Origin: a virus | Virus record (IMG/VR): IMGVR_UViG_3300048927_000209 | Strand: one strand, 5' to 3' | DNA: 64,000 nucleotides | In this document: positions 17,664 to 56,826 of the stretch, one piece after another | How the letters are laid out: the number at the start of each line of letters is the position of its first letter | Position numbering within the stretch: the stretch's first letter is position 1 | Program-made: the position numbers and the translations under genes | The notes under the pieces: generated by a model | Databases searched by the model: none | What the model was told of the DNA's origin: nothing | What the model saw: only the letters and a program-made list of their open reading frames with translations

Positions 17664-19334
17664 TTATTTACGGGTCAGCACATAACGGCTGTACGGCAAT
17701 GGCGGTGAGACTGATTCATCCTTGAGATCTTCAGCCAGGATGGTAACATCCCACTTGCCATTGATGTCACTGCCGGTCAGTGGGAAGAACACATCCGCAT
17801 GGGTGTCGTCACTGTGGATACTGGTGAGATACACTTTCTGTGTGTCCTCCATGAACAGATCATACACTTCACCACCACCGATGACAAAGATCTCTTTACC
17901 TTTGGCCACGCGGTTAGCCAGTAACAGCGCTTCTTCTTTGGTGGTCACGCACAGCAGGTTGTTGTAATCAACTTCATCGCCACCGCTCAGCAGGCTCAGG
18001 TCAGCATGCTCTTCCTGGTAACGCATCACGTACTCAGGATCACGGGTCAACACGATGTTGATGCGGTTTGGCAGTGGTTTACCAATTGACTCAAAAGTCT
18101 TACGACCCATGATCACAACGTTGCCGGTGGTGGTTTGGCGGAAGAACTGCAGATCTTCCTTAATACGCCACAGCAGATCAGAACCAATCCCAATGCCATT
18201 GGTCGGGCCCACTGCAACAATCGCTGACACGGTTGACTTGTCCATGTCCGGATCACCAAACGGCATTTCTGCTTCAGGCTGTTGAATAGGCAACAGACCC
18301 AGCCCTGCACGGATACGCTGTTCGTTCTTGCGATACACCTCTTCCGCTTCTACCGGACGCTCATCCAACCCGAAGGTAGTAGAGATCTCCAGTGAAGAAT
18401 CGGCTGCACCCACAAAGAAACGCATTTCAGCACGGATGGCGTTTTGCGACTCCATGTAGGTATGGGTGATCATGCAGTTAATTTCAGGGTTGATGCTGCC
18501 ACGAACAGAAACGGTCAATCCATCCGTTAACGCCGTGAACTCATGCAGGCCGAACATGTCGTTCAACATCTTGTTCAGATTCTGAGCGAGTATCGTACGC
18601 GTAGGAATATCCATCACTTCCATGTCGCCGTAATTGATGCCCAGGATCAGTTTACGATGCAGTTCCAACAACACATTGATCAGACCGTACTGGGTCAGGT
18701 TGCTGTCCGAGAACAGTTCTTCACCGCCGTCACGCAAAACAGTCAAACGTGACTGCAGCGTAAAGGTGTTGTTTTCCGCCACCTCGTACTGGTAAACCAC
18801 GCCATCGAAGAACACGCTACCCACTGTGTTCATGACAACGTGATCGTTGGTGGTCAGACGACTGTACAGTTCGTGTGGCGATGGCACGTGTTCGCTGTGT
18901 TTGACTTCAATCTCCTGCCACGCCTGCCCTGGGATCATGTAACGGATGATCAGGTCGTAACCGTCAGTGGTGGTCACCTCGACGTACAGGGTTCCGCCAT
19001 TAACCGCTTCCGCCACATTGAGTTTGACATCCAGCCAATCTGCGGTCACGAAATCGTGTTGACCCGTGGTCTGGTGTAAGGTGTTCATGACCAGCGTCAG
19101 AATGCTCTCGGCAAACAGATCGGTTGGCTTAACGTAATCACGCTCAAACAACGCTTCCAGATAGACGTAGGACAGGATCTTCTTGTCGGTCCAGTGGATC
19201 GCATCACGGTCATGCACGGCACGCACCACGGTGTCATTCACATAAAGAATGACCGGCGCAATTTCGTTGTCCTCTGGATTACGGACAATCGTCAATACCT
19301 GGTCGACAGGCGTGAAGTTTAATTCGTTGCTCAT
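17664..19334 (-). CDS. folA: dihydrofolate reductase fused to a ~366-aa N-terminal domain of unknown function
   Basis: C-terminal 190 aa: [70 protein letters not shown] (DHFR motifs). Start at ATG 19334 (SD TAAGGA); track start is TTG. Confidence 0.85.
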
Positions 19335-19376
19335 AAACAATCCTTACGGGTATGGGTAATGGTTAATGGGGTTACA

Positions 19377-19412
19377 TGAAAGTAATGTAGGCACAAGACT
19401 ATTTGCGTTGTG
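19377..19412 (-). promoter_or_regulatory. promoter-like motif, class B
   Basis: Minus strand GCCTACATTACTTTCATGTAACCCC; core 19382-19391; upstream of DHFR-fusion gene. Confidence 0.45.
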
Positions 19413-20007
19413 CCAGGAACTCCACCGCACGTAGCACGGTGCTGTAGATGGGTTCACTGCGATACGGAAGATGAAAGCCGGTATCTGGCGTAAAGTCAGC
19501 AAACTCTTTATCAAAGAAGTTCACAAACGGCAACGCATAGGCGTGATCTTTTTGATACGCACATAACTGCTTTGCCATGTTGTCCCACTCTTCATCGGTG
19601 ATGGCGGTTATACCGTGGTCGTAATACAACCCGGCATTGACAGACACCGCGGAACGCAACGTCCGAATACGCCGCACAGCATCGTCCACGTTAATGATGT
19701 TGGCTTGGATCTCTTCATTAGAAAGCCCCGCCACACGCATTCCTTTTATATCGTGTTCGATCAGCCCGTTGATGTGCGCGACTGCCTCCTCGATAGTAGG
19801 GAATGTGTTCTCCATGGAGATCTTCACTTTTGGTGCGTGTTTGTGTTCACCCGCCATCAGCTTGTAGATCTCGTTAGGCACGCCCGTGGGATGCTGTTTG
19901 CTAAACTGGTACAAGGTATTCCACTTCTCTTCACCGCTAAGTGAAGACGCGACGTACCAAAGTCGCTTCACCGGCTGGTCGAAATAGAACATGATTCCGT
20001 AGAACAT
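19399..20007 (-). CDS. hypothetical protein (weak GIY-YIG-like N-terminus; LigA domain-Ia-like segment)
   Basis: YGIMFYFDQPVKRLWYVASS resembles GIY-(10-11)-YIG; LRSAVSVNAGLYYDHGITAITDEEWDNMAKQL resembles the YY..isD.EYD..L of NAD-ligase domain Ia; motif-level only. Confidence 0.5.
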   Translation of the reverse strand: MFYGIMFYFDQPVKRLWYVASSLSGEEKWNTLYQFSKQHPTGVPNEIYKLMAGEHKHAPKVKISMENTFPTIEEAVAHINGLIEHDIKGMRVAGLSNEEIQANIINVDDAVRRIRTLRSAVSVNAGLYYDHGITAITDEEWDNMAKQLCAYQKDHAYALPFVNFFDKEFADFTPDTGFHLPYRSEPIYSTVLRAVEFLAQRK

Positions 20008-20832: not shown

Positions 20833-21309
20833 TTACATGTTCAGTACGATGTGGCGGAAATGACTGACGAAACGGTGCTGGTCGGTCTCAATACAAATCC
20901 ACTCACTGTGGTCCGTAAAGAGTTTCACCTGCAGTTCCATCCGATTGATTTCCGGGCAGATAGCTAAACGTGCGCTGGTTGCAAACTTGTTCGTCTTCAA
21001 CGGGATAATCACCGCATCAAACGATTCCAAGTAAGGGATCTTCAAACTCACATGTTTGTACCACTGCTCTTTGGTGTAACGGTTGCGAACGGCATTTTTA
21101 ACCACCCGCACACGTTTCTGACTGTGGACAAGCTTGTGCATTTCGAACAGGTTCAGGCCGTCCGTCTGTGTTGCCACATACTGGGTGAAGCTGCGAAACA
21201 TGGAAAGAAACTTTTCACGGTCAATACCCAAGTCGTCCAGGTCGGGCAGTATCTCATGGAACGACACTTCGATCGGGCACGGGTTGACGTAGTTGGGTTT
21301 GATTCTCAT
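20833..21309 (-). CDS. hypothetical protein (158 aa)
   Basis: ATGA overlap with upstream ORF. Confidence 0.55.
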   Translation of the reverse strand: MRIKPNYVNPCPIEVSFHEILPDLDDLGIDREKFLSMFRSFTQYVATQTDGLNLFEMHKLVHSQKRVRVVKNAVRNRYTKEQWYKHVSLKIPYLESFDAVIIPLKTNKFATSARLAICPEINRMELQVKLFTDHSEWICIETDQHRFVSHFRHIVLNM

Positions 21310-21836
21310 AACGCACCTTCAAACGCTGGGAGTTCTTTCACCGCACGGTAACGCGCCTGCAACACCGGGATAGCAGCTTCGCACTCGTACTCCGCGACCT
21401 TAGCGATGCAGTGGTGCAGTTCCTCAGGCAACTTGAGACCGTAACGCTCAACAAAAGCTTTCACCAGGAAGGCCCCGTGGGAGTCTACCGGCATCCATTC
21501 TTCACACGCTGAACGGTACTCCAGCTCATGAATCGGGTCCAGGTCACCACGGCTCCACTCCTGGTTAGCCGACGTACCTTCCGGATACCCTTCGGGATAC
21601 TGGGTGTCGTAGTCCACGCCATCGATACGCATCCAGCAGTGGTTACGGTTAACCAGGATCGCCACGTTGTAGTTGAACTTCTCGCGCAGTACCTGACTGG
21701 CAGCAATCGCAACCAACCCACAATCGCCGCTGTTGATGGCTTTCACTGTTGCGGAGTGGTCTTCCAGTTGGCGGTCGGCGTTATACGCAACCCAGCAACG
21801 AACCAGGTCATTTAATACATTAGCAATGGTGCTCAT
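21306..21836 (-). CDS. hypothetical protein with papain/transglutaminase-like Cys-His-Asp signature (tentative)
   Basis: INSGDCGLVAIAASQVL..(27 aa)..NRNHCWMRIDGVDYD: C..H..D order and context like transglutaminase-core cysteine peptidases, but spacing is shorter than typical. Confidence 0.35.
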   Translation of the reverse strand: MSTIANVLNDLVRCWVAYNADRQLEDHSATVKAINSGDCGLVAIAASQVLREKFNYNVAILVNRNHCWMRIDGVDYDTQYPEGYPEGTSANQEWSRGDLDPIHELEYRSACEEWMPVDSHGAFLVKAFVERYGLKLPEELHHCIAKVAEYECEAAIPVLQARYRAVKELPAFEGAL

Positions 21837-21845
21837 GGTCTTTCC

Positions 21846-22487
21846 TTATTTAGTCAGGTCCAGGCCTAAAACTTCGGTGATGAGGGATTTGTTCGTTTCA
21901 AACACAACGCCCACATCGATCTTTGGGTTCTCGGTCATATCGTGTTTAATGGTAACACTGCGCTCAACGTTACCGTCTACTACTGTGAAGGTGATCTTCT
22001 GTAAGAAGCCGGGGGTGGCACGACCCATGCTGTCCAGGAAGATAGAGGAGATGCGCCAGTGAATTTCCTTTCCACCAATCTCGATGTTATCGTTATTGAT
22101 GTACTGGTTATCAACAATACTGTTTAACGGCTTCATCGCCGCTTGTGCTTTGACGAGGTCAGCATCCGTCATCTTGTAATGCAGCTGCTCCATCGCACCA
22201 TGCACCACAGCCTTACGCAGCACGCTGAGATAATTCTGCGCAATGGAAGCTAGCCGATCTTCTGGCAGTGGGAACTTGTACGTGTCTTCACGACCAAGCA
22301 AGATATCCAGGTCGTCGTTACCATCAGGACCTGGAATATAAGCCACCGCTTGATAGTACGGTTTTTCCGCATCCATCTGCCACATGTCAACAGTAAGCCC
22401 CTGTTGGTTCCGTGTCAGGAGTTTAACGTGATTGCCTTTGTCTTCCATTGGTTGGAACTGTAACAAGGTAGTGAAATTGGTGTTCAT
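21846..22487 (-). CDS. hypothetical protein (213 aa)
   Basis: ATGA overlap with upstream ORF. Confidence 0.55.
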   Translation of the reverse strand: MNTNFTTLLQFQPMEDKGNHVKLLTRNQQGLTVDMWQMDAEKPYYQAVAYIPGPDGNDDLDILLGREDTYKFPLPEDRLASIAQNYLSVLRKAVVHGAMEQLHYKMTDADLVKAQAAMKPLNSIVDNQYINNDNIEIGGKEIHWRISSIFLDSMGRATPGFLQKITFTVVDGNVERSVTIKHDMTENPKIDVGVVFETNKSLITEVLGLDLTK

Positions 22488-23032
22488 TTGACAAACTCCT
22501 GATGGTACGTAGCGAAAAAGTCGATCATCTCATTCCAGGTTTGCTCTAACCCGTCGTGAATAATTTTGGATACCTCAGAGCTGGAATCGCCGATGTTGTT
22601 GTAACTCATGACGATTTGCCAGCTGGGGTAAAGTTCAGACGATAACTTGGTTCTGCCGGTGGCGGGGTCGACATCAAAGGCCCAGGATAACAGAAAGGAA
22701 CGAATCTCCGGTCGATAAAGACCCCAAGCGTCCCGGTCCAACTTGGCCATGAACAATTCAAAGGCGTCCATTAACCAGCCGCCTTCTTTATTGATGACGA
22801 AGATGATGTTGCGCTTCTGCCGGTCGCTGTAGTGCTTCATGTCATTGCGGGCTTCATATTCACCCTGAGTATGACCAGAGCAAGACCACGTACTACACAC
22901 ACCGGTGAACTCGTTGAACTTTTTCAGACTTTCTACAATACGCGGATCAACCCCATTAAGGTCATTTGCCAACCAATCTTCCCAACGCTGGGTGATGATA
23001 GCAAACTGCGCGTCCGTTACTACGTTGAACAT
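22484..23032 (-). CDS. hypothetical protein (182 aa)
   Basis: SD TAGGAG; leader TTTACCCGTAGGAG. Confidence 0.55.
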   Translation of the reverse strand: MFNVVTDAQFAIITQRWEDWLANDLNGVDPRIVESLKKFNEFTGVCSTWSCSGHTQGEYEARNDMKHYSDRQKRNIIFVINKEGGWLMDAFELFMAKLDRDAWGLYRPEIRSFLLSWAFDVDPATGRTKLSSELYPSWQIVMSYNNIGDSSSEVSKIIHDGLEQTWNEMIDFFATYHQEFVK

Positions 23033-23079
23033 GCGATTCTCCTACGGGTAAAGGAACTGCCCGCCTAAGCGGGCGTGGG

Positions 23080-24717
23080 TTAACGGTTACGCAGTAAATC
23101 TGCCAAACTGTTCAGCACAGCCGATTCAGTGTTAACCGGTTTGTGACGAGGCACGCGCACAGGAACAGCTTCCAGAATATCCTTGGCGCGTTCAGCAATG
23201 AACTTACTGTCCACCACAATCTTCGTATCCTCAGGCATGTTAGACGCATCATAGCGAAGCTGGTCAAACAACACACTGCTGATGTTAATGAGTCGACGTG
23301 CACCAATATCTTCACCACGCTGGTTGCAGTCAAACGCCAACTGAGCAATGTCTTTCACTGCTTCGTCAGTGATGTCGAAATCAACACCCTCTGCACCCAT
23401 GATCGTTTTGAGTTTGGCGATTACGGACCCATGCGGTTTGTTCAAAATCTGATACAGGGAATCTTTGTCCAGCGGTTGCAGACGCACGTGCACTGGAAGA
23501 CGACCCAGTATCTCAGCCGGGACATCGGAGACCTTGGCAATGTTGAACGCGCCTGAGGCAATCCAGAGAATGTTAGCCGTGTTGATACGAAAGCTACGGT
23601 TCTTAGCACGATTGTTACCGTAGTACTGTTCCCGCTCACCCTGCATCGGAACGTCCAGTGTTACCCCGTCCAGATAGGGGAGTAAATCACGCACTACACC
23701 AATGTTACCGACGTTACCACCAGACTTATCAACAAAGATCTTGTCAATCTCATCAATGAAGATAATGCCACGGTCTTCCACCAAACGGACAATGAAGTCA
23801 TCTGGGATATCGCCCGAAGGTCGATTAGCAACCTTGGCGGTCTTAACCAGATCGCCCCATTTGGTCTTATGGTATTTCCCCAATGCAATGGCAATATCCT
23901 TTAACTTATCCGGCGCCATTGCCATGATAACGTTATTGACGTACGACTCGGTCAGTTTGGGACGACGACTCAACCTTGAGTAGTAACTGGTTGGTAGTAG
24001 CGTTTGCAGGTGATCAGCAATGGCCTTGTCTTTCAGTCCCGCCGCTGCAATACACATCGCCGCAAAGTTCTGGTAGATGAGGTAATCACCCGTTGCTTGA
24101 GCGCCACCAAAGCTTAACCCCATCTCTTCCATTATGTCGTCGAAAGCAGACTTCTTCTTCTCACTAGGTGACGTCAGTCGATGATGCAGGATGTAACTTG
24201 CCGGCACAATCAGCTTGTTCAGCTTTCCGGCGTTAGACGCATCTTCTACCTGTGCGTAAGTCAAACCGGCTGGGTCGACCTTAAGATGTTTGGCAACGAG
24301 ATCCTTGTCTTCTAAGAACAGTTTGCGTGTTAACCCGCTCACTGCTGCAGAAGGTGCAGCAGCTTTGCTTTGTTCTTTCCACAGGCTAGGTGCGATACGT
24401 ACAGCTTCTGTAACCAGATCAGAGAGAATGGTTTTCACATCCCGGCCAAAGTAACCCACCTGCGTGAACTCAGTGATCTCTACTTTGATAAACGGTGCGT
24501 TAGTGAGTTCAGCCATCTGGCGGGCCAGCTCAGTTTTTCCCACGCCACTTGGTCCAATCATCAGGATGTTGTTTGGTACCACGTAACGCCATTCCTCACC
24601 GGTATTCTCTAAGCGCAATGCGCGTTCACGGTAAGAAACAGCAATGGCGCGTTTTGCATCCATTTGACCAATGACGAACTGGTCTAAGTACTGCGTGATT
24701 TCAAATGTAGTTTTCAT
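23080..24717 (-). CDS. hslU: HslU-type AAA+ unfoldase with enlarged intermediate domain
   Basis: LDQFVIGQMDAKRAIAV; ILMIGPSGVGKTELARQMAELTNAPFIKVEITEFTQVGYFG (Walker A); GIIFIDEIDKI (Walker B); ILWIASGAF; GRLPVHVRL; IGARRL. ATGA overlap with upstream ORF. Confidence 0.9.
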   Translation of the reverse strand: MKTTFEITQYLDQFVIGQMDAKRAIAVSYRERALRLENTGEEWRYVVPNNILMIGPSGVGKTELARQMAELTNAPFIKVEITEFTQVGYFGRDVKTILSDLVTEAVRIAPSLWKEQSKAAAPSAAVSGLTRKLFLEDKDLVAKHLKVDPAGLTYAQVEDASNAGKLNKLIVPASYILHHRLTSPSEKKKSAFDDIMEEMGLSFGGAQATGDYLIYQNFAAMCIAAAGLKDKAIADHLQTLLPTSYYSRLSRRPKLTESYVNNVIMAMAPDKLKDIAIALGKYHKTKWGDLVKTAKVANRPSGDIPDDFIVRLVEDRGIIFIDEIDKIFVDKSGGNVGNIGVVRDLLPYLDGVTLDVPMQGEREQYYGNNRAKNRSFRINTANILWIASGAFNIAKVSDVPAEILGRLPVHVRLQPLDKDSLYQILNKPHGSVIAKLKTIMGAEGVDFDITDEAVKDIAQLAFDCNQRGEDIGARRLINISSVLFDQLRYDASNMPEDTKIVVDSKFIAERAKDILEAVPVRVPRHKPVNTESAVLNSLADLLRNR

Positions 24718-25034
24718 ACACCATGACCTATTGTTATCTGATAGTTCACAGGGGTCGCTGACACATCCAGGATGGTTAACAGGATACCCGTGTGTTGAAT
24801 AAGCGCAGGTTGCAGATGCCGATATAGACGCAGAAAGATGTCGCGACCTAATGGGTCCCAGGTCTGCATGTCTTGTTCCAGACGCGGATAGTGTAACGGA
24901 TTGGATACTGCAACCAGAACGTTCAAAATAATCGGACGCAGGTAATCGGTTTTCTTTTGATTCACCGCCAAATCACTGCTGAGTGGAAGAACTGGCAGTA
25001 AGGGGTTGGTAATGTCGAAGATCGACCGGTCCAT
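24714..25034 (-). CDS. hypothetical protein (106 aa), first gene of the hslU-like operon
   Basis: Strong SD AAGGAG; promoter-like motif 25096-25105 upstream. Confidence 0.6.
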   Translation of the reverse strand: MDRSIFDITNPLLPVLPLSSDLAVNQKKTDYLRPIILNVLVAVSNPLHYPRLEQDMQTWDPLGRDIFLRLYRHLQPALIQHTGILLTILDVSATPVNYQITIGHGV

Positions 25035-25125: not shown

Positions 25126-25148
25126 ATAAAACCAGGGACGAGCCCTGG
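25121..25148 (-). terminator. hairpin terminator with UUUUAUGCCG tail
   Basis: CCAGGG-5 nt-CCCTGG + TTTTATGCCGCC; 7 nt after stop of LamG gene. Confidence 0.6.
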
Positions 25149-25154
25149 CTATGC

Positions 25155-25862
25155 TTATTTGAAGATTGGGTGAGGTGGGGTGAAGTTAGCGCTGTAGCGT
25201 GCAAAGTTGTATAACCCAAATTCAGGCATATACAAATCACCCGTACCACTGTTTGCTTTACCAATGGTAAAAGCCGATAACCCACCGGACAGATCAAACG
25301 CCCCGTTGAAATCAGGCAGGTTATAGGTGGTACCTGTTCCAGAGGCCAACATTTGTTGGACGCCGTCAATGTAGAAGACGCAGCGGTTGTTCTTACGTAC
25401 CAACGCGTAGTGATGCCAACCGTTTCGCAATGAAGTCCCGGTGACGTTCGGGCTGAAGTTACCGCCATTACCCAGATCGATCCCCACCTGCATACGCTGA
25501 CCATAACCGCCGTTGGCCACGCGAATGGTCAGGTACTTACCGTTCTTAAACGTGAGCAACAACAGGGGGTAGTAGTCGCCCGGGAGTGTCGACATCCAAC
25601 ACCAACACTCCAGGGTAAAATCACTGGACCCCAATGTGTCAATTGCACTCAGCGGTGTCACGTTAGCAAAAGTACCCAAGCAACGTAGGCTTTGCGTATA
25701 CCCACTGATTTCTGCGCCCGAACCATGTGCGGTAATCACACCACCGGAATAGCTGGTTACTGCCGGTGTACTGGTGCTCTTCCCCTGATCAAAGTTAAAG
25801 CCCATGACCGGGGTGCCTGGCACAATACTCCCTCTACTCCTCCCCATAATCATTTCTAACAT
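25155..25862 (-). CDS. concanavalin-A/LamG-like lectin-fold protein with MLEMIMG N-terminus
   Basis: SSDFTLECWCW..GWHHYALVR..VFYIDGV..FTIGKA..LYMPEFGLYNFA typical of LamG (Laminin_G_3). Track ATG 25910 lies in the terminator tail; start moved to ATG 25862/25865 (SD GGGGTG). Confidence 0.65.
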   Translation of the reverse strand: MLEMIMGRSRGSIVPGTPVMGFNFDQGKSTSTPAVTSYSGGVITAHGSGAEISGYTQSLRCLGTFANVTPLSAIDTLGSSDFTLECWCWMSTLPGDYYPLLLLTFKNGKYLTIRVANGGYGQRMQVGIDLGNGGNFSPNVTGTSLRNGWHHYALVRKNNRCVFYIDGVQQMLASGTGTTYNLPDFNGAFDLSGGLSAFTIGKANSGTGDLYMPEFGLYNFARYSANFTPPHPIFK

Positions 25863-25882
25863 CATCGCACCCCATTGTTTAC

Positions 25883-25900
25883 ATCTACCGTTATAGAATT
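25883..25900 (-). promoter_or_regulatory. promoter-like motif (variant TCTATAACGGTAGATGTAAAC)
   Basis: One base shorter than CTATATCACGGTGATGTAA at 55754; between terminator 25905-25933 and ATG 25862. Confidence 0.3.
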
Positions 25901-25904
25901 TGGT

Positions 25905-25933
25905 CAGCATAAAGGCAGGACCGAAGTCCTGCC
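25905..25933 (-). terminator. C(UUCG)G hairpin terminator with UUUAUGCUG tail
   Basis: Minus strand GGCAGGAC-TTCG-GTCCTGCC + TTTATGCTG; after tdk. Confidence 0.75.
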
Positions 25934-46310: not shown

Positions 46311-46350
46311 AAATAAGGCCAGGGAATTACCCCTGGCGCTTATGCCGATT
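46311..46350 (-). terminator. rho-independent terminator; GGCATAAG motif on the upstream side
   Basis: Minus strand CGGCATAAGC-GCCAGGG-GTAATT-CCCTGGC + CTTATTTTTT. Confidence 0.7.
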
Positions 46351-47752
46351 ACTCAGCGTCTTCGTCTTCGTCAGCACGATCGTCAGCGTGAACTTCCGCA
46401 TTCACGTGATCAACCACCACTTCGCTTACAACGACTTTACCGTTAACGATCTTGATGTTCTTACGCGGTTTACGCAGCGTCGCCGCCAAAGAGACTGGCT
46501 CAGTTGGCGGCTCTTTGAATGCCGGCATGCCGGCAGTTTCACGCGCAACCACCGCTTCCTCTGGTGTTAACAGACGGAAGTCAATAACCGCAAAACAACG
46601 ACCTTCACGCATCAACGCCGGTTCGATCTGTTTGCGATCGACGACGTTGGTGAGGAAGACGACTTTACGTGACGTGTTGCTTGAGATACCGTCGGTTTCA
46701 TTCAGCAGGTTACCCATCAGGGTGTTACCCATGGTGCGTGGTGCGATCAGAATATCCGCATCCTCACAGATGACCATTGGAACACGCGGCTCTTCTTTCT
46801 TTCCTTCTACTGTTACACGGAAGGCTGCAAGCTTTCTGTCGAACAGTTCGGCATCCAGCAGCGGGCTGCCTTCAAACAGATCCGCACGTGAACGCGCTTC
46901 AGCACCAGCGATTTGTGCCATGTATTTGTCACTCGTCTTAAAGACAAAGTCAACAAAGTCACGGTCCGCAATCACGTCGGTTTTCTTGGCGTAGATTGGC
47001 AGAATGTGCAACAAATCAATAGCCGCAGATACAGCAGAGGTTTTACCTGTACCCGGAGGACCTGACAGAATCAGTACGGATTCATCCGATGCCATGAATT
47101 GCGCAAACAACTCATGCACTGATCCACCCAGGTAAGGATAGTACGTAGGTTCGGCGACACGCGGTGTATCGATAGTGCCACTGATCATCCCCAAGGTATC
47201 ACCGCTGCCACCCATGATTGACATACCACGGGCAGGGTTTTTCACCACCTCATAATACGGTGTGCGACTTTCGGTGACTGGATCGATGTTGACGTTCTCC
47301 TTCATCAAGTCCAGCAGCTCGAGCGCCAGAGTCTCAACGCCCGCAAAATTGATTGTCAGATTACGGTGACTATCCGGTGCTACAGACAGATGACCAATGA
47401 CGCGATTACCCTCATCCAATGCGATGAAGTTGGCATCACCTTTACGGATAAACTCATGCTTCGCCAGGAACGGCTTGAGGAAATCGTCAGACGGGAAATA
47501 CTGCGTGTGATGCAGGAAATTATCAGTATCGAAGCGCACCCACGGCAGACCCAGTGCTTCGCAGCACGCTTTGCAAAGCGCCATGTCCAGGTCCTTATGA
47601 TCCTGATCACCGTAGCCAGCAGAGTTCACCCAGCTGAACAGCAACTCACCTACTGAACTGAATACCGAATCCAGCGGTTTAACGACAGAAGTAACAGAAA
47701 CGTCGGTGTTCAGATCAGAGACAGAACGCAGGGCTTTAACAGTGTTGTTCAT
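46349..47752 (-). CDS. classical AAA-family ATPase with ~200-aa N-terminal domain
   Basis: Walker A VLILSGPPGTGKTSAV; Walker B PMVICEDADILI; second region of homology VVFLTNVVDRKQIEPALMREGRCFAVIDF. Confidence 0.8.
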   Translation of the reverse strand: MNNTVKALRSVSDLNTDVSVTSVVKPLDSVFSSVGELLFSWVNSAGYGDQDHKDLDMALCKACCEALGLPWVRFDTDNFLHHTQYFPSDDFLKPFLAKHEFIRKGDANFIALDEGNRVIGHLSVAPDSHRNLTINFAGVETLALELLDLMKENVNIDPVTESRTPYYEVVKNPARGMSIMGGSGDTLGMISGTIDTPRVAEPTYYPYLGGSVHELFAQFMASDESVLILSGPPGTGKTSAVSAAIDLLHILPIYAKKTDVIADRDFVDFVFKTSDKYMAQIAGAEARSRADLFEGSPLLDAELFDRKLAAFRVTVEGKKEEPRVPMVICEDADILIAPRTMGNTLMGNLLNETDGISSNTSRKVVFLTNVVDRKQIEPALMREGRCFAVIDFRLLTPEEAVVARETAGMPAFKEPPTEPVSLAATLRKPRKNIKIVNGKVVVSEVVVDHVNAEVHADDRADEDEDAE

Positions 47753-47809: not shown

Positions 47810-49873
<2,064 letters not shown>

Positions 49874-55828: not shown

Positions 55829-56509
55829 TTACTTTCTGTGTGTATAGTGGCAAATCATGACACTAACCAAAGAAACCAACCAAGCGATCACTCCAGGTAT
55901 TCCGTGACCATTCTGCAGGTAGTAGACGACCCAGAGTGCCACCGCAATGATGCACACCTGAATCCACACTAACCACTGTTCACGAAATCCTAAGATTATT
56001 AATAGCGTCCCGATGCTCCCTCCAATCAAGGTAAGGCTGCGCAACGTCTCCGCTATATCGCCCGTGGCTAAGAGATTGTGAACCACTAACCCGGTGCCTA
56101 ACAGTAGCCCGAAGGTAATAGCCAGATCTTGCCAAAAGGGAAGTGATTGTGGGGATTGGGGGCGGTGAAAAGCGAATTCATATCGCCAGACAAACGCGCC
56201 CAGTAAGTTGACTACCAAAAACAGCCCTTGCTCCCAGAGGTGAACGGCCATCCCCAGACGGTAGCAGTAGATTCCGTAAAAGGCGACCGCCACGCCGCCG
56301 AATAAGAAACCCACCAGATAGCCCCGTCCCAGAAGAATGAAATGCAGCACGAAGGATAGCGTCGCTACGTAGTAGAACCAATCCGCCATGTAACATGCTG
56401 TGGCCGATAACACCAAGGAAGCGCCCAGTACCCAACCCATTTCAAGTTTAGACCAGGACATTGATCGACTCACGAGACATTCCTCAGGTAACAAAGACAT
56501 ATCATTCAT
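55829..56509 (-). CDS. pnuC: PnuC-like nicotinamide riboside transporter
   Basis: Multi-TM; LPFWQDLAITFGLLLG and GFREQWLVWIQVCIIAVALWVVYY parallel E. coli PnuC PFWDS.. and TRKYVENWLLWVIINVISVVIF (from memory); start set at TGATG-coupled ATG 56509. Confidence 0.65.
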   Translation of the reverse strand: MNDMSLLPEECLVSRSMSWSKLEMGWVLGASLVLSATACYMADWFYYVATLSFVLHFILLGRGYLVGFLFGGVAVAFYGIYCYRLGMAVHLWEQGLFLVVNLLGAFVWRYEFAFHRPQSPQSLPFWQDLAITFGLLLGTGLVVHNLLATGDIAETLRSLTLIGGSIGTLLIILGFREQWLVWIQVCIIAVALWVVYYLQNGHGIPGVIAWLVSLVSVMICHYTHRK

Positions 56510-56826
56510 CAGCCAAACCAGATCTTCCCCTTTGACAAAATTAGAAAGAACGTACATAACCCCCAGGTATCTGTTTTACTGTTGGTACAGGTTAAGGACA
56601 AACCCTGCTCGGCACAGTATTTTAATAATGCATCGACCTTGTCTTGATCATTAAAATGCTCATTAAGCAGGTACTGTAATTCGATTATTGTGTCTTGCGC
56701 ATCGTCAGGCAGGTGACGTCGGTTAGCCTTGTCGGTGATGCGAAGCGTCGAACAAGGTACCGTCGGGTGTGCTTCAAGCGATTGAATAAGAGTGCACACT
56801 TCTGGGATCACTGTTGTAGGTAGCAT
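56509..56826 (-). CDS. hypothetical protein (105 aa)
   Basis: ATG 56826 just after terminator 56850-56879; stop overlaps pnuC-like start (TGATG). Confidence 0.45.
   Translation of the reverse strand: MLPTTVIPEVCTLIQSLEAHPTVPCSTLRITDKANRRHLPDDAQDTIIELQYLLNEHFNDQDKVDALLKYCAEQGLSLTCTNSKTDTWGLCTFFLILSKGKIWFG

Follow-up and report, generated by a model that had tools for sequence, protein, structure and literature searches.

This work concerns a gene cluster in a 64,000-nucleotide stretch of viral DNA (IMG/VR record IMGVR_UViG_3300048927_000209), referred to throughout as the window, and in particular an HslU-like ATPase encoded at 23080-24717 together with the small open reading frame (ORF) that precedes it. 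An initial annotation, made from the letters of the sequence, had listed six ORFs between 20833 and 25034. All six were confirmed on the minus strand at those coordinates when read from the window sequence, and the same genes were called by an independent gene caller on a 99%-identical ENA contig of 281,302 bp. The stop codon of ORF 24714-25034 overlaps the start of the ATPase gene via ATGA, and the two further ATGA overlaps (22484/21846 and 21306/20833) and the 9-nucleotide (nt) gap at 21846/21836 also are as first described. The gap 3' of the ATPase stop codon, given as 48 nt, was counted as 47 nt. Within it, at 23074-23059, lies GCCCGCTTAGGCGGGC, which is the region's best terminator-like hairpin. 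A megablast search with the 4.2-kb region returned no match among 50,697 phage records, and that collection contains no close sequenced relative of the phage. The locus is laid out as follows.

25132-25148, minus strand: hairpin CCAGGGCTCGTCCCTGG followed by TTTT, 3' of the upstream gene 25155-25910; read directly from the sequence.
24714-25034, minus strand: small putative partner ORF, 106 amino acids (aa), with an AAGGAG Shine-Dalgarno sequence 6 nt upstream; its stop codon overlaps the ATPase start (ATGA).
23080-24717, minus strand: HslU-derived AAA+ ATPase, 545 aa, of the jumbo-phage clade phrog_4339, assigned by profile, PDB sequence and fold.
23059-23074, minus strand: GC-rich hairpin GCCCGCTTAGGCGGGC, directly 3' of the ATPase stop codon; terminator-like, with a weak T tail.
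20833-23032, minus strand: four accessory ORFs of 182, 213, 176 and 158 aa, not counted in the ATPase module.

Profile analysis of the ATPase against NCBIfam gave HslU (TIGR00390) as the best match at 280.7 bits, which is below the curated equivalog cutoff of 362.45 for that family; ClpX scored 175.5 bits. A PDB sequence search returned HslU chains (E=1e-65), the match falling into two blocks on either side of the I-domain (residues 3-111 and 304-510). When an AlphaFold model of the protein (predicted local distance difference test [pLDDT], 73.8) was compared with the PDB using Foldseek, the top 50 matches all were HslU/ClpY. The protein thus is HslU-type rather than ClpX or Lon, as the initial annotation had proposed, and membership of the ClpX family was rejected on the lower profile score and the absence of an IGF loop. 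The strongest family match was the phage family phrog_4339 (E=6.7e-107, full length), which PHROGs labels "unknown function." In a search of 5.8 billion proteins, approximately 30 proteins of 524 to 582 aa formed a distinct clade scoring 245 to 1200 bits, below which lay a plateau of ordinary bacterial HslU at ~230 bits. The members that carry names come from the Erwinia Agricanvirus phages Ea35-70, RAY, Simmy50, and AH06, where they are annotated as "putative HslU / ATP-dependent protease" (45% identity); the nearest relatives, at 59 to 62% identity, are known from metagenomes only. As an HslU/ClpY-type AAA+ ATPase, the product of ORF 23080-24717 falls in the jumbo-phage clade phrog_4339 and is, within it, a divergent member of a known, uncharacterised HslU-like family. 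The view that no phage system of this kind had been described therefore has to be revised: phrog_4339 exists, HslU-like annotations are found in Agricanvirus and other jumbo phages, and one family member, RAY gp116, has been localised. The gene class is annotated and, in one phage, localised, but it has not been explained.

Further inspection of the primary structure was based on an alignment of the clade with six bacterial HslU proteins, that of E. coli among them; 24 clade members were used for motif conservation. The following features were located within the ATPase.

24532-24555, minus strand: Walker A motif GPSGVGKT, residues 55-62 (sequence and clade alignment).
24445-24456, minus strand: pore-1 loop GYFG, the substrate-gripping loop, residues 88-91 (sequence and clade alignment).
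23806-24387, minus strand: I-domain of 193 aa (residues 111-304), enlarged; predominantly helical in the model and basic, with an isoelectric point (pI) of 9.35.
23740-23763, minus strand: Walker B motif IFIDEIDK, residues 319-326 (sequence and clade alignment).
23599-23649, minus strand: clade-specific loop insertion QGEREQYYGNNRAKNRS, residues ~357-373, between Walker B and sensor-1; low model confidence.
23083-23166, minus strand: variable C-terminal extension, residues 518-545, in place of the bacterial DLS(R/K/Q)(F/Y)IL tail; not conserved.

The HslU motifs quoted in the initial annotation all are present in the ORF, with sensor-1 (ASGAF) at residue 387, the arginine finger (GRLP) at 405, and sensor-2 (GARRL) at 472. 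Walker A starts at residue 55 and Walker B at residue 319, a start-to-start distance of 264 residues instead of the ~210 first estimated. Both Walker motifs, sensor-1, the arginine finger, and sensor-2 match those of E. coli HslU in the alignment and do not vary within the clade; the pore loop reads GY(F/Y/H/V)G in all but one of the 24 members, the exception being GFYG in the homologue P0009. In these respects the protein resembles bacterial HslU (TIGR00390; PDB 1G4A, 1DO0, and 6PXK), which shares with it the Walker, sensor, and arginine-finger motifs, a GYxG loop, and an I-domain placed after the pore-1 loop, and which likewise has neither an N-terminal zinc domain nor an IGF loop.

Four homologues of ~900 aa (P0010, P0019, P0027, and P0028) carry a LAGLIDADG domain (PF14528) of ~350 aa inserted exactly after the Walker A lysine (GPSGVGK|T, K61); the insertion point aligns to residues 61/62 of the window protein, nt ~24532-24537. 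Inteins typically are found at conserved sites of ATPases, such as P-loops, and the insert probably is an intein in the P-loop. Its presence in four homologues is consistent with a functional P-loop. Taken from the alignment, the ATP-hydrolysis machinery and the substrate-gripping pore loop appear to be retained. This bears on the notion that the gene is a decaying, functionless relic acquired from a host hslU, as might be read from a score below the HslU equivalog cutoff and from the loss of both the tail and the partner peptidase. Against such decay, the catalytic motifs are invariant across a clade that has diverged to 36 to 45% identity, synteny is conserved, inteins persist in the P-loops of the family, and the RAY protein was expressed as a green fluorescent protein (GFP) fusion with a specific localisation. 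We regard a functionless relic as very improbable.

What the protein lacks, relative to bacterial HslU, are the elements that dock and activate the peptidase. In E. coli HslU's C-terminal tail (DLSRFIL, with Phe441) activates HslV (PMC4106860, PMC6429459), and Pro315, which pairs with Phe441, is critical for this activation (PMC4106860). The DLS(R/K/Q)(F/Y)IL tail was present in 6/6 of the bacterial HslU proteins aligned and in none of the phage members aligned, which bears out the earlier remark that the C terminus does not resemble an HslV-activating tail. The window ATPase ends in ...SLADLLRNR after a nonconserved extension; some clade members stop at about residue 517, and others have extensions of 20 to 45 aa that are 12 to 61% identical to that of the window. 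The position of Pro315 is occupied by Val396 (NIAKVSD), and this valine is nearly invariant in the phage clade. The ~42-residue insertion that bears the IGF loop, with which ClpX docks onto ClpP, is absent, as it is in HslU. The N-terminal C4 zinc-binding domain of ClpX also is absent, and the ATPase starts at the AAA+ module, its residue 3 corresponding to about residue 66 of ClpX (the ClpX reference sequence for the loop comparison was checked against PDB 8E91). Judged from these alignments, both HslV-activation determinants have been lost clade-wide, and the ClpP-docking loop of ClpX was never present.

There is no adjacent hslV, and phmmer and tblastn searches with E. coli HslV, B. subtilis ClpQ, and E. 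coli ClpP found none of these in the 64-kb window, in agreement with the initial observation that no Ntn-peptidase gene flanks the ATPase. At E<=1e-6, 20 Pfam families were assigned across the 87 window ORFs, and a peptidase domain was not among them. When HslV was used in a tblastn search of the 50,697 phage records, 14 records matched, none of which was a jumbo phage: all were short fragments or bacterial genomes apart from one unannotated Staphylococcus record of 386 kb with adjoining HslV and HslU, and they look like host DNA. The complete genomes of related phages likewise yielded no HslV. We also noted that the Salmonella phage pSal-SNUABM-04 has been described as encoding HslV at two loci without HslU (PMC7823757). 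In its record, MT710307.1, tblastn found no HslV match and did find an HslU-like gene at 106156-107820, under the annotations "putative DnaA protein" and "hypothetical protein," indicating that the annotation probably is wrong.

These observations bear on one option raised in the initial annotation, namely, that host HslV is bound by the phage ATPase, which would serve as an alternative specificity subunit and direct the peptidase towards substrates chosen by the phage. The AAA+ core is ~39 to 51% identical to that of E. coli HslU over the aligned core segments, bacterial HslU-HslV pairs were recovered (one of them enterobacterial), the likely host group, as judged from Erwinia and Salmonella phage relatives, normally has HslV, and no phage peptidase was found in the window. 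However, activation requires both the tail and Pro315 (PMC4106860, PMC6429459), and the clade as a whole has neither; some of its proteins stop short of the tail region, and the C-terminal extensions that replace the tail are not conserved, at 12 to 61% identity. Moreover, the RAY orthologue, gp116, is reported to reside inside the phage nucleus (PMC10299810). This compartment is reported to exclude host nucleases. The hijacking of host HslV is thus disfavoured, and we consider it unlikely.

The I-domain is inserted at the same site as in HslU, in the large AAA+ subdomain after the pore-1 loop, and the earlier description of it as expanded holds: it measures 193 aa in the window protein and 125 aa in E. 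coli HslU. Across the main clade its length is 175 to 218 aa, compared with 118 to 145 aa in bacterial HslU. The window I-domain is ~70 aa longer than its bacterial counterpart and is unrelated to it in sequence (15% identity, not alignable), and a PDB search with the I-domain alone gave no match. Within the clade the I-domain is 11 to 35% identical to that of the window, whereas the AAA+ core is 43 to 85% identical. Its charge is reversed; the pI is 8.3 to 9.4 in 28 of 29 phage-type sequences versus 4.9 to 5.3 in bacterial HslU, so that a basic domain stands where the bacterial one is acidic.

A second clade-specific element is the loop insertion of 13 to 20 aa between Walker B and sensor-1, which is found neither in bacterial HslU nor in the phage member that has diverged furthest. 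Its low model confidence is as expected of a flexible loop. ClpX is the sister family of HslU, and the insertion aligns at the position of the ClpX RKH loop, at the pore entrance (VPMQG...EREQYYGNNRAKNRSF versus VPPQG...GRKHPQQEF), but it contains no RKH motif. In lacking this motif, the zinc N-domain, and the IGF loop, and in its profile score, which is lower for ClpX than for HslU, the window ATPase differs from ClpX. ClpX can act alone as a remodeller, for example in the disassembly of the MuA transpososome, and the protease-independent remodelling of DNA-bound complexes proposed below would resemble the action of ClpX on MuA.

In order to define which neighbouring genes belong with the ATPase, the window was compared with 12 related loci, and a presence/absence matrix was drawn up. 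An ORF of 106 to 121 aa whose end lies at or overlaps the ATPase start was found in the window, in RAY (gp115), in AH06 (AH06_121), and in the loci L010, L012, L015, L018, and L019. The initial annotation had described a tight coupling of the ATPase gene to ORF 24714-25034; the overlap is confirmed, and coupling to a small upstream ORF is kept in 8/10 related loci. A hidden Markov model (HMM) of the small ORF built from the window lineage had, as its top non-self matches among 792 ORFs, the upstream ORFs of AH06 (E=8e-5) and RAY (E=5.5e-4); the reverse HMM search was weak (E=0.31, rank 2 of 756). The 106-aa ORF recovered 2 proteins in a word-indexed search and 3 in an exhaustive HMMER search of 1.8 billion representative proteins, and neither it nor the 213- and 158-aa ORFs had a match in Pfam, NCBIfam, or PHROGs. 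These searches indicate that the small-ORF family is tiny, lineage restricted, and fast evolving.

The locus of Salmonella phage SA002, which is not among the 18 records covering at least 80% of the ATPase, provides a natural comparison, in that the ATPase and the small ORF are missing from it together. In SA002 (MN445183.1, 82888-97391), two reverse-strand genes lie between the thymidine kinase gene and the homologue of the 182-aa ORF, replacing gp114, the small ORF, and the ATPase. On this comparison the SA002 locus reads as a natural indel that removed the ATPase and its partner together. Because the small ORF tracks the ATPase across loci and the four downstream ORFs vary independently, the functional unit as predicted from the sequence is the pair of small ORF and ATPase, bounded by one hairpin upstream and by the other at 23074-23059. 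The upstream hairpin, CCAGGGCTCGTCCCTGG at 25132-25148, is missing from the list produced by a hairpin consensus scan; it is separated from the small ORF by an AT-rich stretch and is likely to mark the boundary of the two-gene unit.

The closest named counterpart of this locus is that of RAY and the other Agricanvirus phages, whose "putative HslU" (gp116 in RAY) is 45% identical to the window protein over 97% of its length and resembles it in its large I-domain, in the inserted loop, and in having no HslV tail. The gene order is shared as well: thymidine kinase, gp114, the small overlapping ORF, the ATPase, a gp117-like ORF, and, further on, a dihydrofolate reductase (DHFR) fusion, with homologues of thymidine kinase, gp114, gp117, gp119, gp120, and DHFR occurring in the same order in RAY and in the window. 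The window protein nevertheless belongs to a separate sublineage; its I-domain is 193 rather than 212 aa long and only 16% identical to that of RAY, and, unlike in Agricanvirus, the ATPase is separated from the gp117-like gene by two additional ORFs (182 and 213 aa). More distant jumbo-phage ATPases, of Erwinia phage Machina (gp129), Cronobacter phage CR5, and Salmonella phage SPAsTU, also have an HslU-like core around a very large insert. Machina gp129 resembles the window protein in having no HslV tail, and its I-domain is ~330 aa. The distant proteins are ~31% identical to the window protein in the core and lie in another neighbourhood, in which no homologous small upstream ORF was seen. 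Prichard et al. (2023) fused 24 RAY proteins to GFP and found gp116-GFP inside the phage nucleus, giving no function for it (PMC10299810), and a literature search found no further paper on this gene class.

Nucleus-forming jumbo phages keep their DNA apart from the cytoplasm by means of a protein shell. Taking the above together, we favour, with a probability of roughly 55%, the interpretation that the ATPase is a protease-independent, HslU-derived unfoldase or remodeller that acts in the phage nucleus and in which the rebuilt I-domain, the cotranslated small partner, and the loop added at the pore entrance govern substrate choice. The family, the motifs, the missing docking elements, the gene pair, and the lack of a peptidase nearby are the observations from which this interpretation starts. 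The product of ORF 23080-24717 would be a hexameric AAA+ unfoldase/translocase, a descendant of HslU uncoupled from any peptidase. A larger, basic, fast-evolving I-domain, together with the added loop at the pore mouth, would have remade its choice of substrates. The small protein encoded at 24714-25034, on which substrate choice probably depends as well, would serve as an adaptor or regulator coproduced with the ATPase. By analogy with the RAY orthologue, the complex would act inside the phage nucleus, where specific proteins or protein-DNA assemblies would be unfolded or pulled apart and not fed to a protease. The basic I-domain and the colocalisation with DNA suggest, by the same analogy, DNA-bound or acidic targets. 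Of the three options set out in the initial annotation, a stand-alone remodeller fits best.

Several points weigh against this interpretation. Homology of the small ORF is weak beyond close relatives: the locus L017 has a 114-aa ORF in the same place whose homology to the others is undetectable, and the two most divergent loci, L014 and L020, have no small ORF. The peptidase search covered 64 kb of a genome of ~281 kb, and noncanonical docking to HslV or to another peptidase may be compatible with the sequence. We infer hexamer formation, activity, and substrates for the clade as a whole from its sequences, as we do the role of the partner, and the nuclear location in this phage is drawn by analogy. 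Nuclear location has been shown only for the 45%-identical orthologue, as a GFP fusion. Chimallin was not found in the 64-kb window, and the nucleus-forming lifestyle of this phage therefore rests on synteny with Agricanvirus.

In a different role for the same conserved core, the protein would be directed at the host: it might poison host HslU by entering mixed hexamers that lack the tail, or it might unfold defence proteins of the host in the cytoplasm. Fast evolution of both the I-domain and the small partner would suit an arms race, the gene is accessory and patchily distributed, and defence evasion was raised as a possibility by the authors of the RAY study (PMC10299810). Nuclear localisation of the RAY orthologue speaks against this, mixed hexamers are not particularly favoured by a core identity of 39 to 51% with host HslU, and a PADLOC search returned only generic P-loop matches and no known defence or antidefence family. 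We find action against the host doubtful. Alternatively, the ATPase and its partner could form a nuclear protein-handling machine at or inside the chimallin shell that pulls selected proteins in through the lattice or removes proteins from phage DNA, with the I-domain and the partner setting the cargo. An unfoldase has been named as a possible solution for physical transit into the phage nucleus, with the mechanism left open (bioRxiv 10.1101/2024.03.27.586873). Such a machine strikes us as improbable; were it real, the fast-evolving I-domain and partner would determine its cargo specificity.

If the remodeller interpretation is correct, the clade would represent a clean natural case of an AAA+ protease subunit turned into a pure remodeller. 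The constant pairing of small ORF and ATPase, the charge-reversed I-domain, and the natural "deletion" in SA002 offer experimental handles. Since the ATPase gene is accessory, is annotated in many genomes, and has been localised in one phage, the finding sharpens an existing lead. What the analysis adds to it is the clade-wide loss of both HslV-activation determinants, the loop at the ClpX position, the charge reversal of the I-domain, and the constant small partner gene.

The initial annotation had treated the four ORFs downstream of the ATPase as part of one operon with it. We rejected the six-gene run as a single functional operon on the basis of the presence/absence matrix and the hairpin at 23074-23059, which lies between the ATPase and the four ORFs. 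The presence of the latter is independent of the ATPase, and three of them are kept in SA002, which has no ATPase at the locus: homologues of the 182-, 213-, and 176-aa ORFs occur there in the same order between thymidine kinase and DHFR. The 158-aa ORF had no homologue in any of the related loci compared.

The 176-aa ORF (21306-21836) had been singled out for a Cys-His-Asp signature, and these positions prove to be conserved across its family: His66 is invariant, and Cys39 and Asp77 are conserved in at least 90% of 14 members. A confident AlphaFold model built from a shallow alignment of four sequences (pLDDT 87.9) has a helix starting at Cys39, a strand at residue 67, and Asp77 after the next strand, so that Cys39 and His66 are placed, in the model, as in papain/transglutaminase-like enzymes. 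Pfam returned YunG alone (E=0.03), and a PDB profile search gave a best E of 0.35. Foldseek found no significant fold match for the model in the PDB (best E of 0.5, menin) and only uncharacterised jumbo-phage proteins in BFVD. Menin contains a transglutaminase-like domain, and the weak menin matches are a hint only. The protein may represent a new thiol enzyme family. The family, phrog_6870, is found across many jumbo phages, including OBP, SA002, Moabite, Miami, and Vibrio phage pTD1, and Agricanvirus has paralogues of ~241 aa.

This ORF would be a candidate if the ATPase were paired with a new type of phage peptidase, either the 176-aa protein or one encoded outside the window, to form a novel ATP-dependent protease. 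The conserved residues and their papain/transglutaminase-like placement are in keeping with such a pairing, as is the position of the Agricanvirus homologue, gp117, directly downstream of the ATPase. The distribution of the family, however, argues against an obligatory link to the ATPase: it occurs at the SA002 locus without the ATPase; in phage OBP its neighbours are RNA polymerase genes, and the 14.5-kb locus examined there contains no HslU-like gene; in Klebsiella phage Miami ~55 kb separate it from the HslU-like gene; and four ATPase-bearing loci have no 176-aa homologue within 6 kb. In addition, the protein has no significant sequence or fold match to any peptidase, and a small, monomer-sized papain-like fold would give a hexamer no obvious docking ring. 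We therefore regard a pairing with a new peptidase as quite improbable.

Among the other neighbours, the 182-aa ORF (22484-23032, minus strand) has subthreshold matches to TYW3/Taw3 tRNA methyltransferase profiles over residues 25 to 55 (E=0.002 to 0.013) and to phrog_7413; it has homologues in SA002 (40%) and in locus L019 (41%). Upstream of the gene pair, 25155-25910 (minus strand) encodes a 251-aa Laminin_G_3 (concanavalin-like) protein with 64% identity to RAY gp114. It is the best-conserved gene of the block and matches the C-terminal part of a PHROG profile of ~1100 aa, phrog_3545.

Beyond the six ORFs, 19399-20007 (minus strand) encodes a 202-aa homologue (48%) of AH06 gene 126, annotated "DNA ligase, adenylation domain." Its positional counterpart in L019 (32% identity) has a faint Pfam Nlig-Ia match, and the protein may be a stand-alone ligase Ia-like domain. 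The DHFR fusion is encoded at 17664-19340 (minus strand) as a 558-aa protein with a C-terminal dihydrofolate reductase and an N-terminal region of several hundred residues with no assigned function; the fusion is conserved in Agricanvirus (24 to 25% identity), SA002 (47%), and metagenomic relatives. At 46349-47752 (minus strand), directly downstream of a full-length NAD-dependent DNA ligase (47836-49845, minus strand), lies a second ATPase, which is of the classical AAA type (PF00004, residues 227-393; phrog_35110, unknown function). The window also encodes a PnuC-like nicotinamide mononucleotide transporter (55829-56557, minus strand; PF04973, E=3e-14), which together with the NAD-dependent ligase suggests a phage-directed NAD supply.

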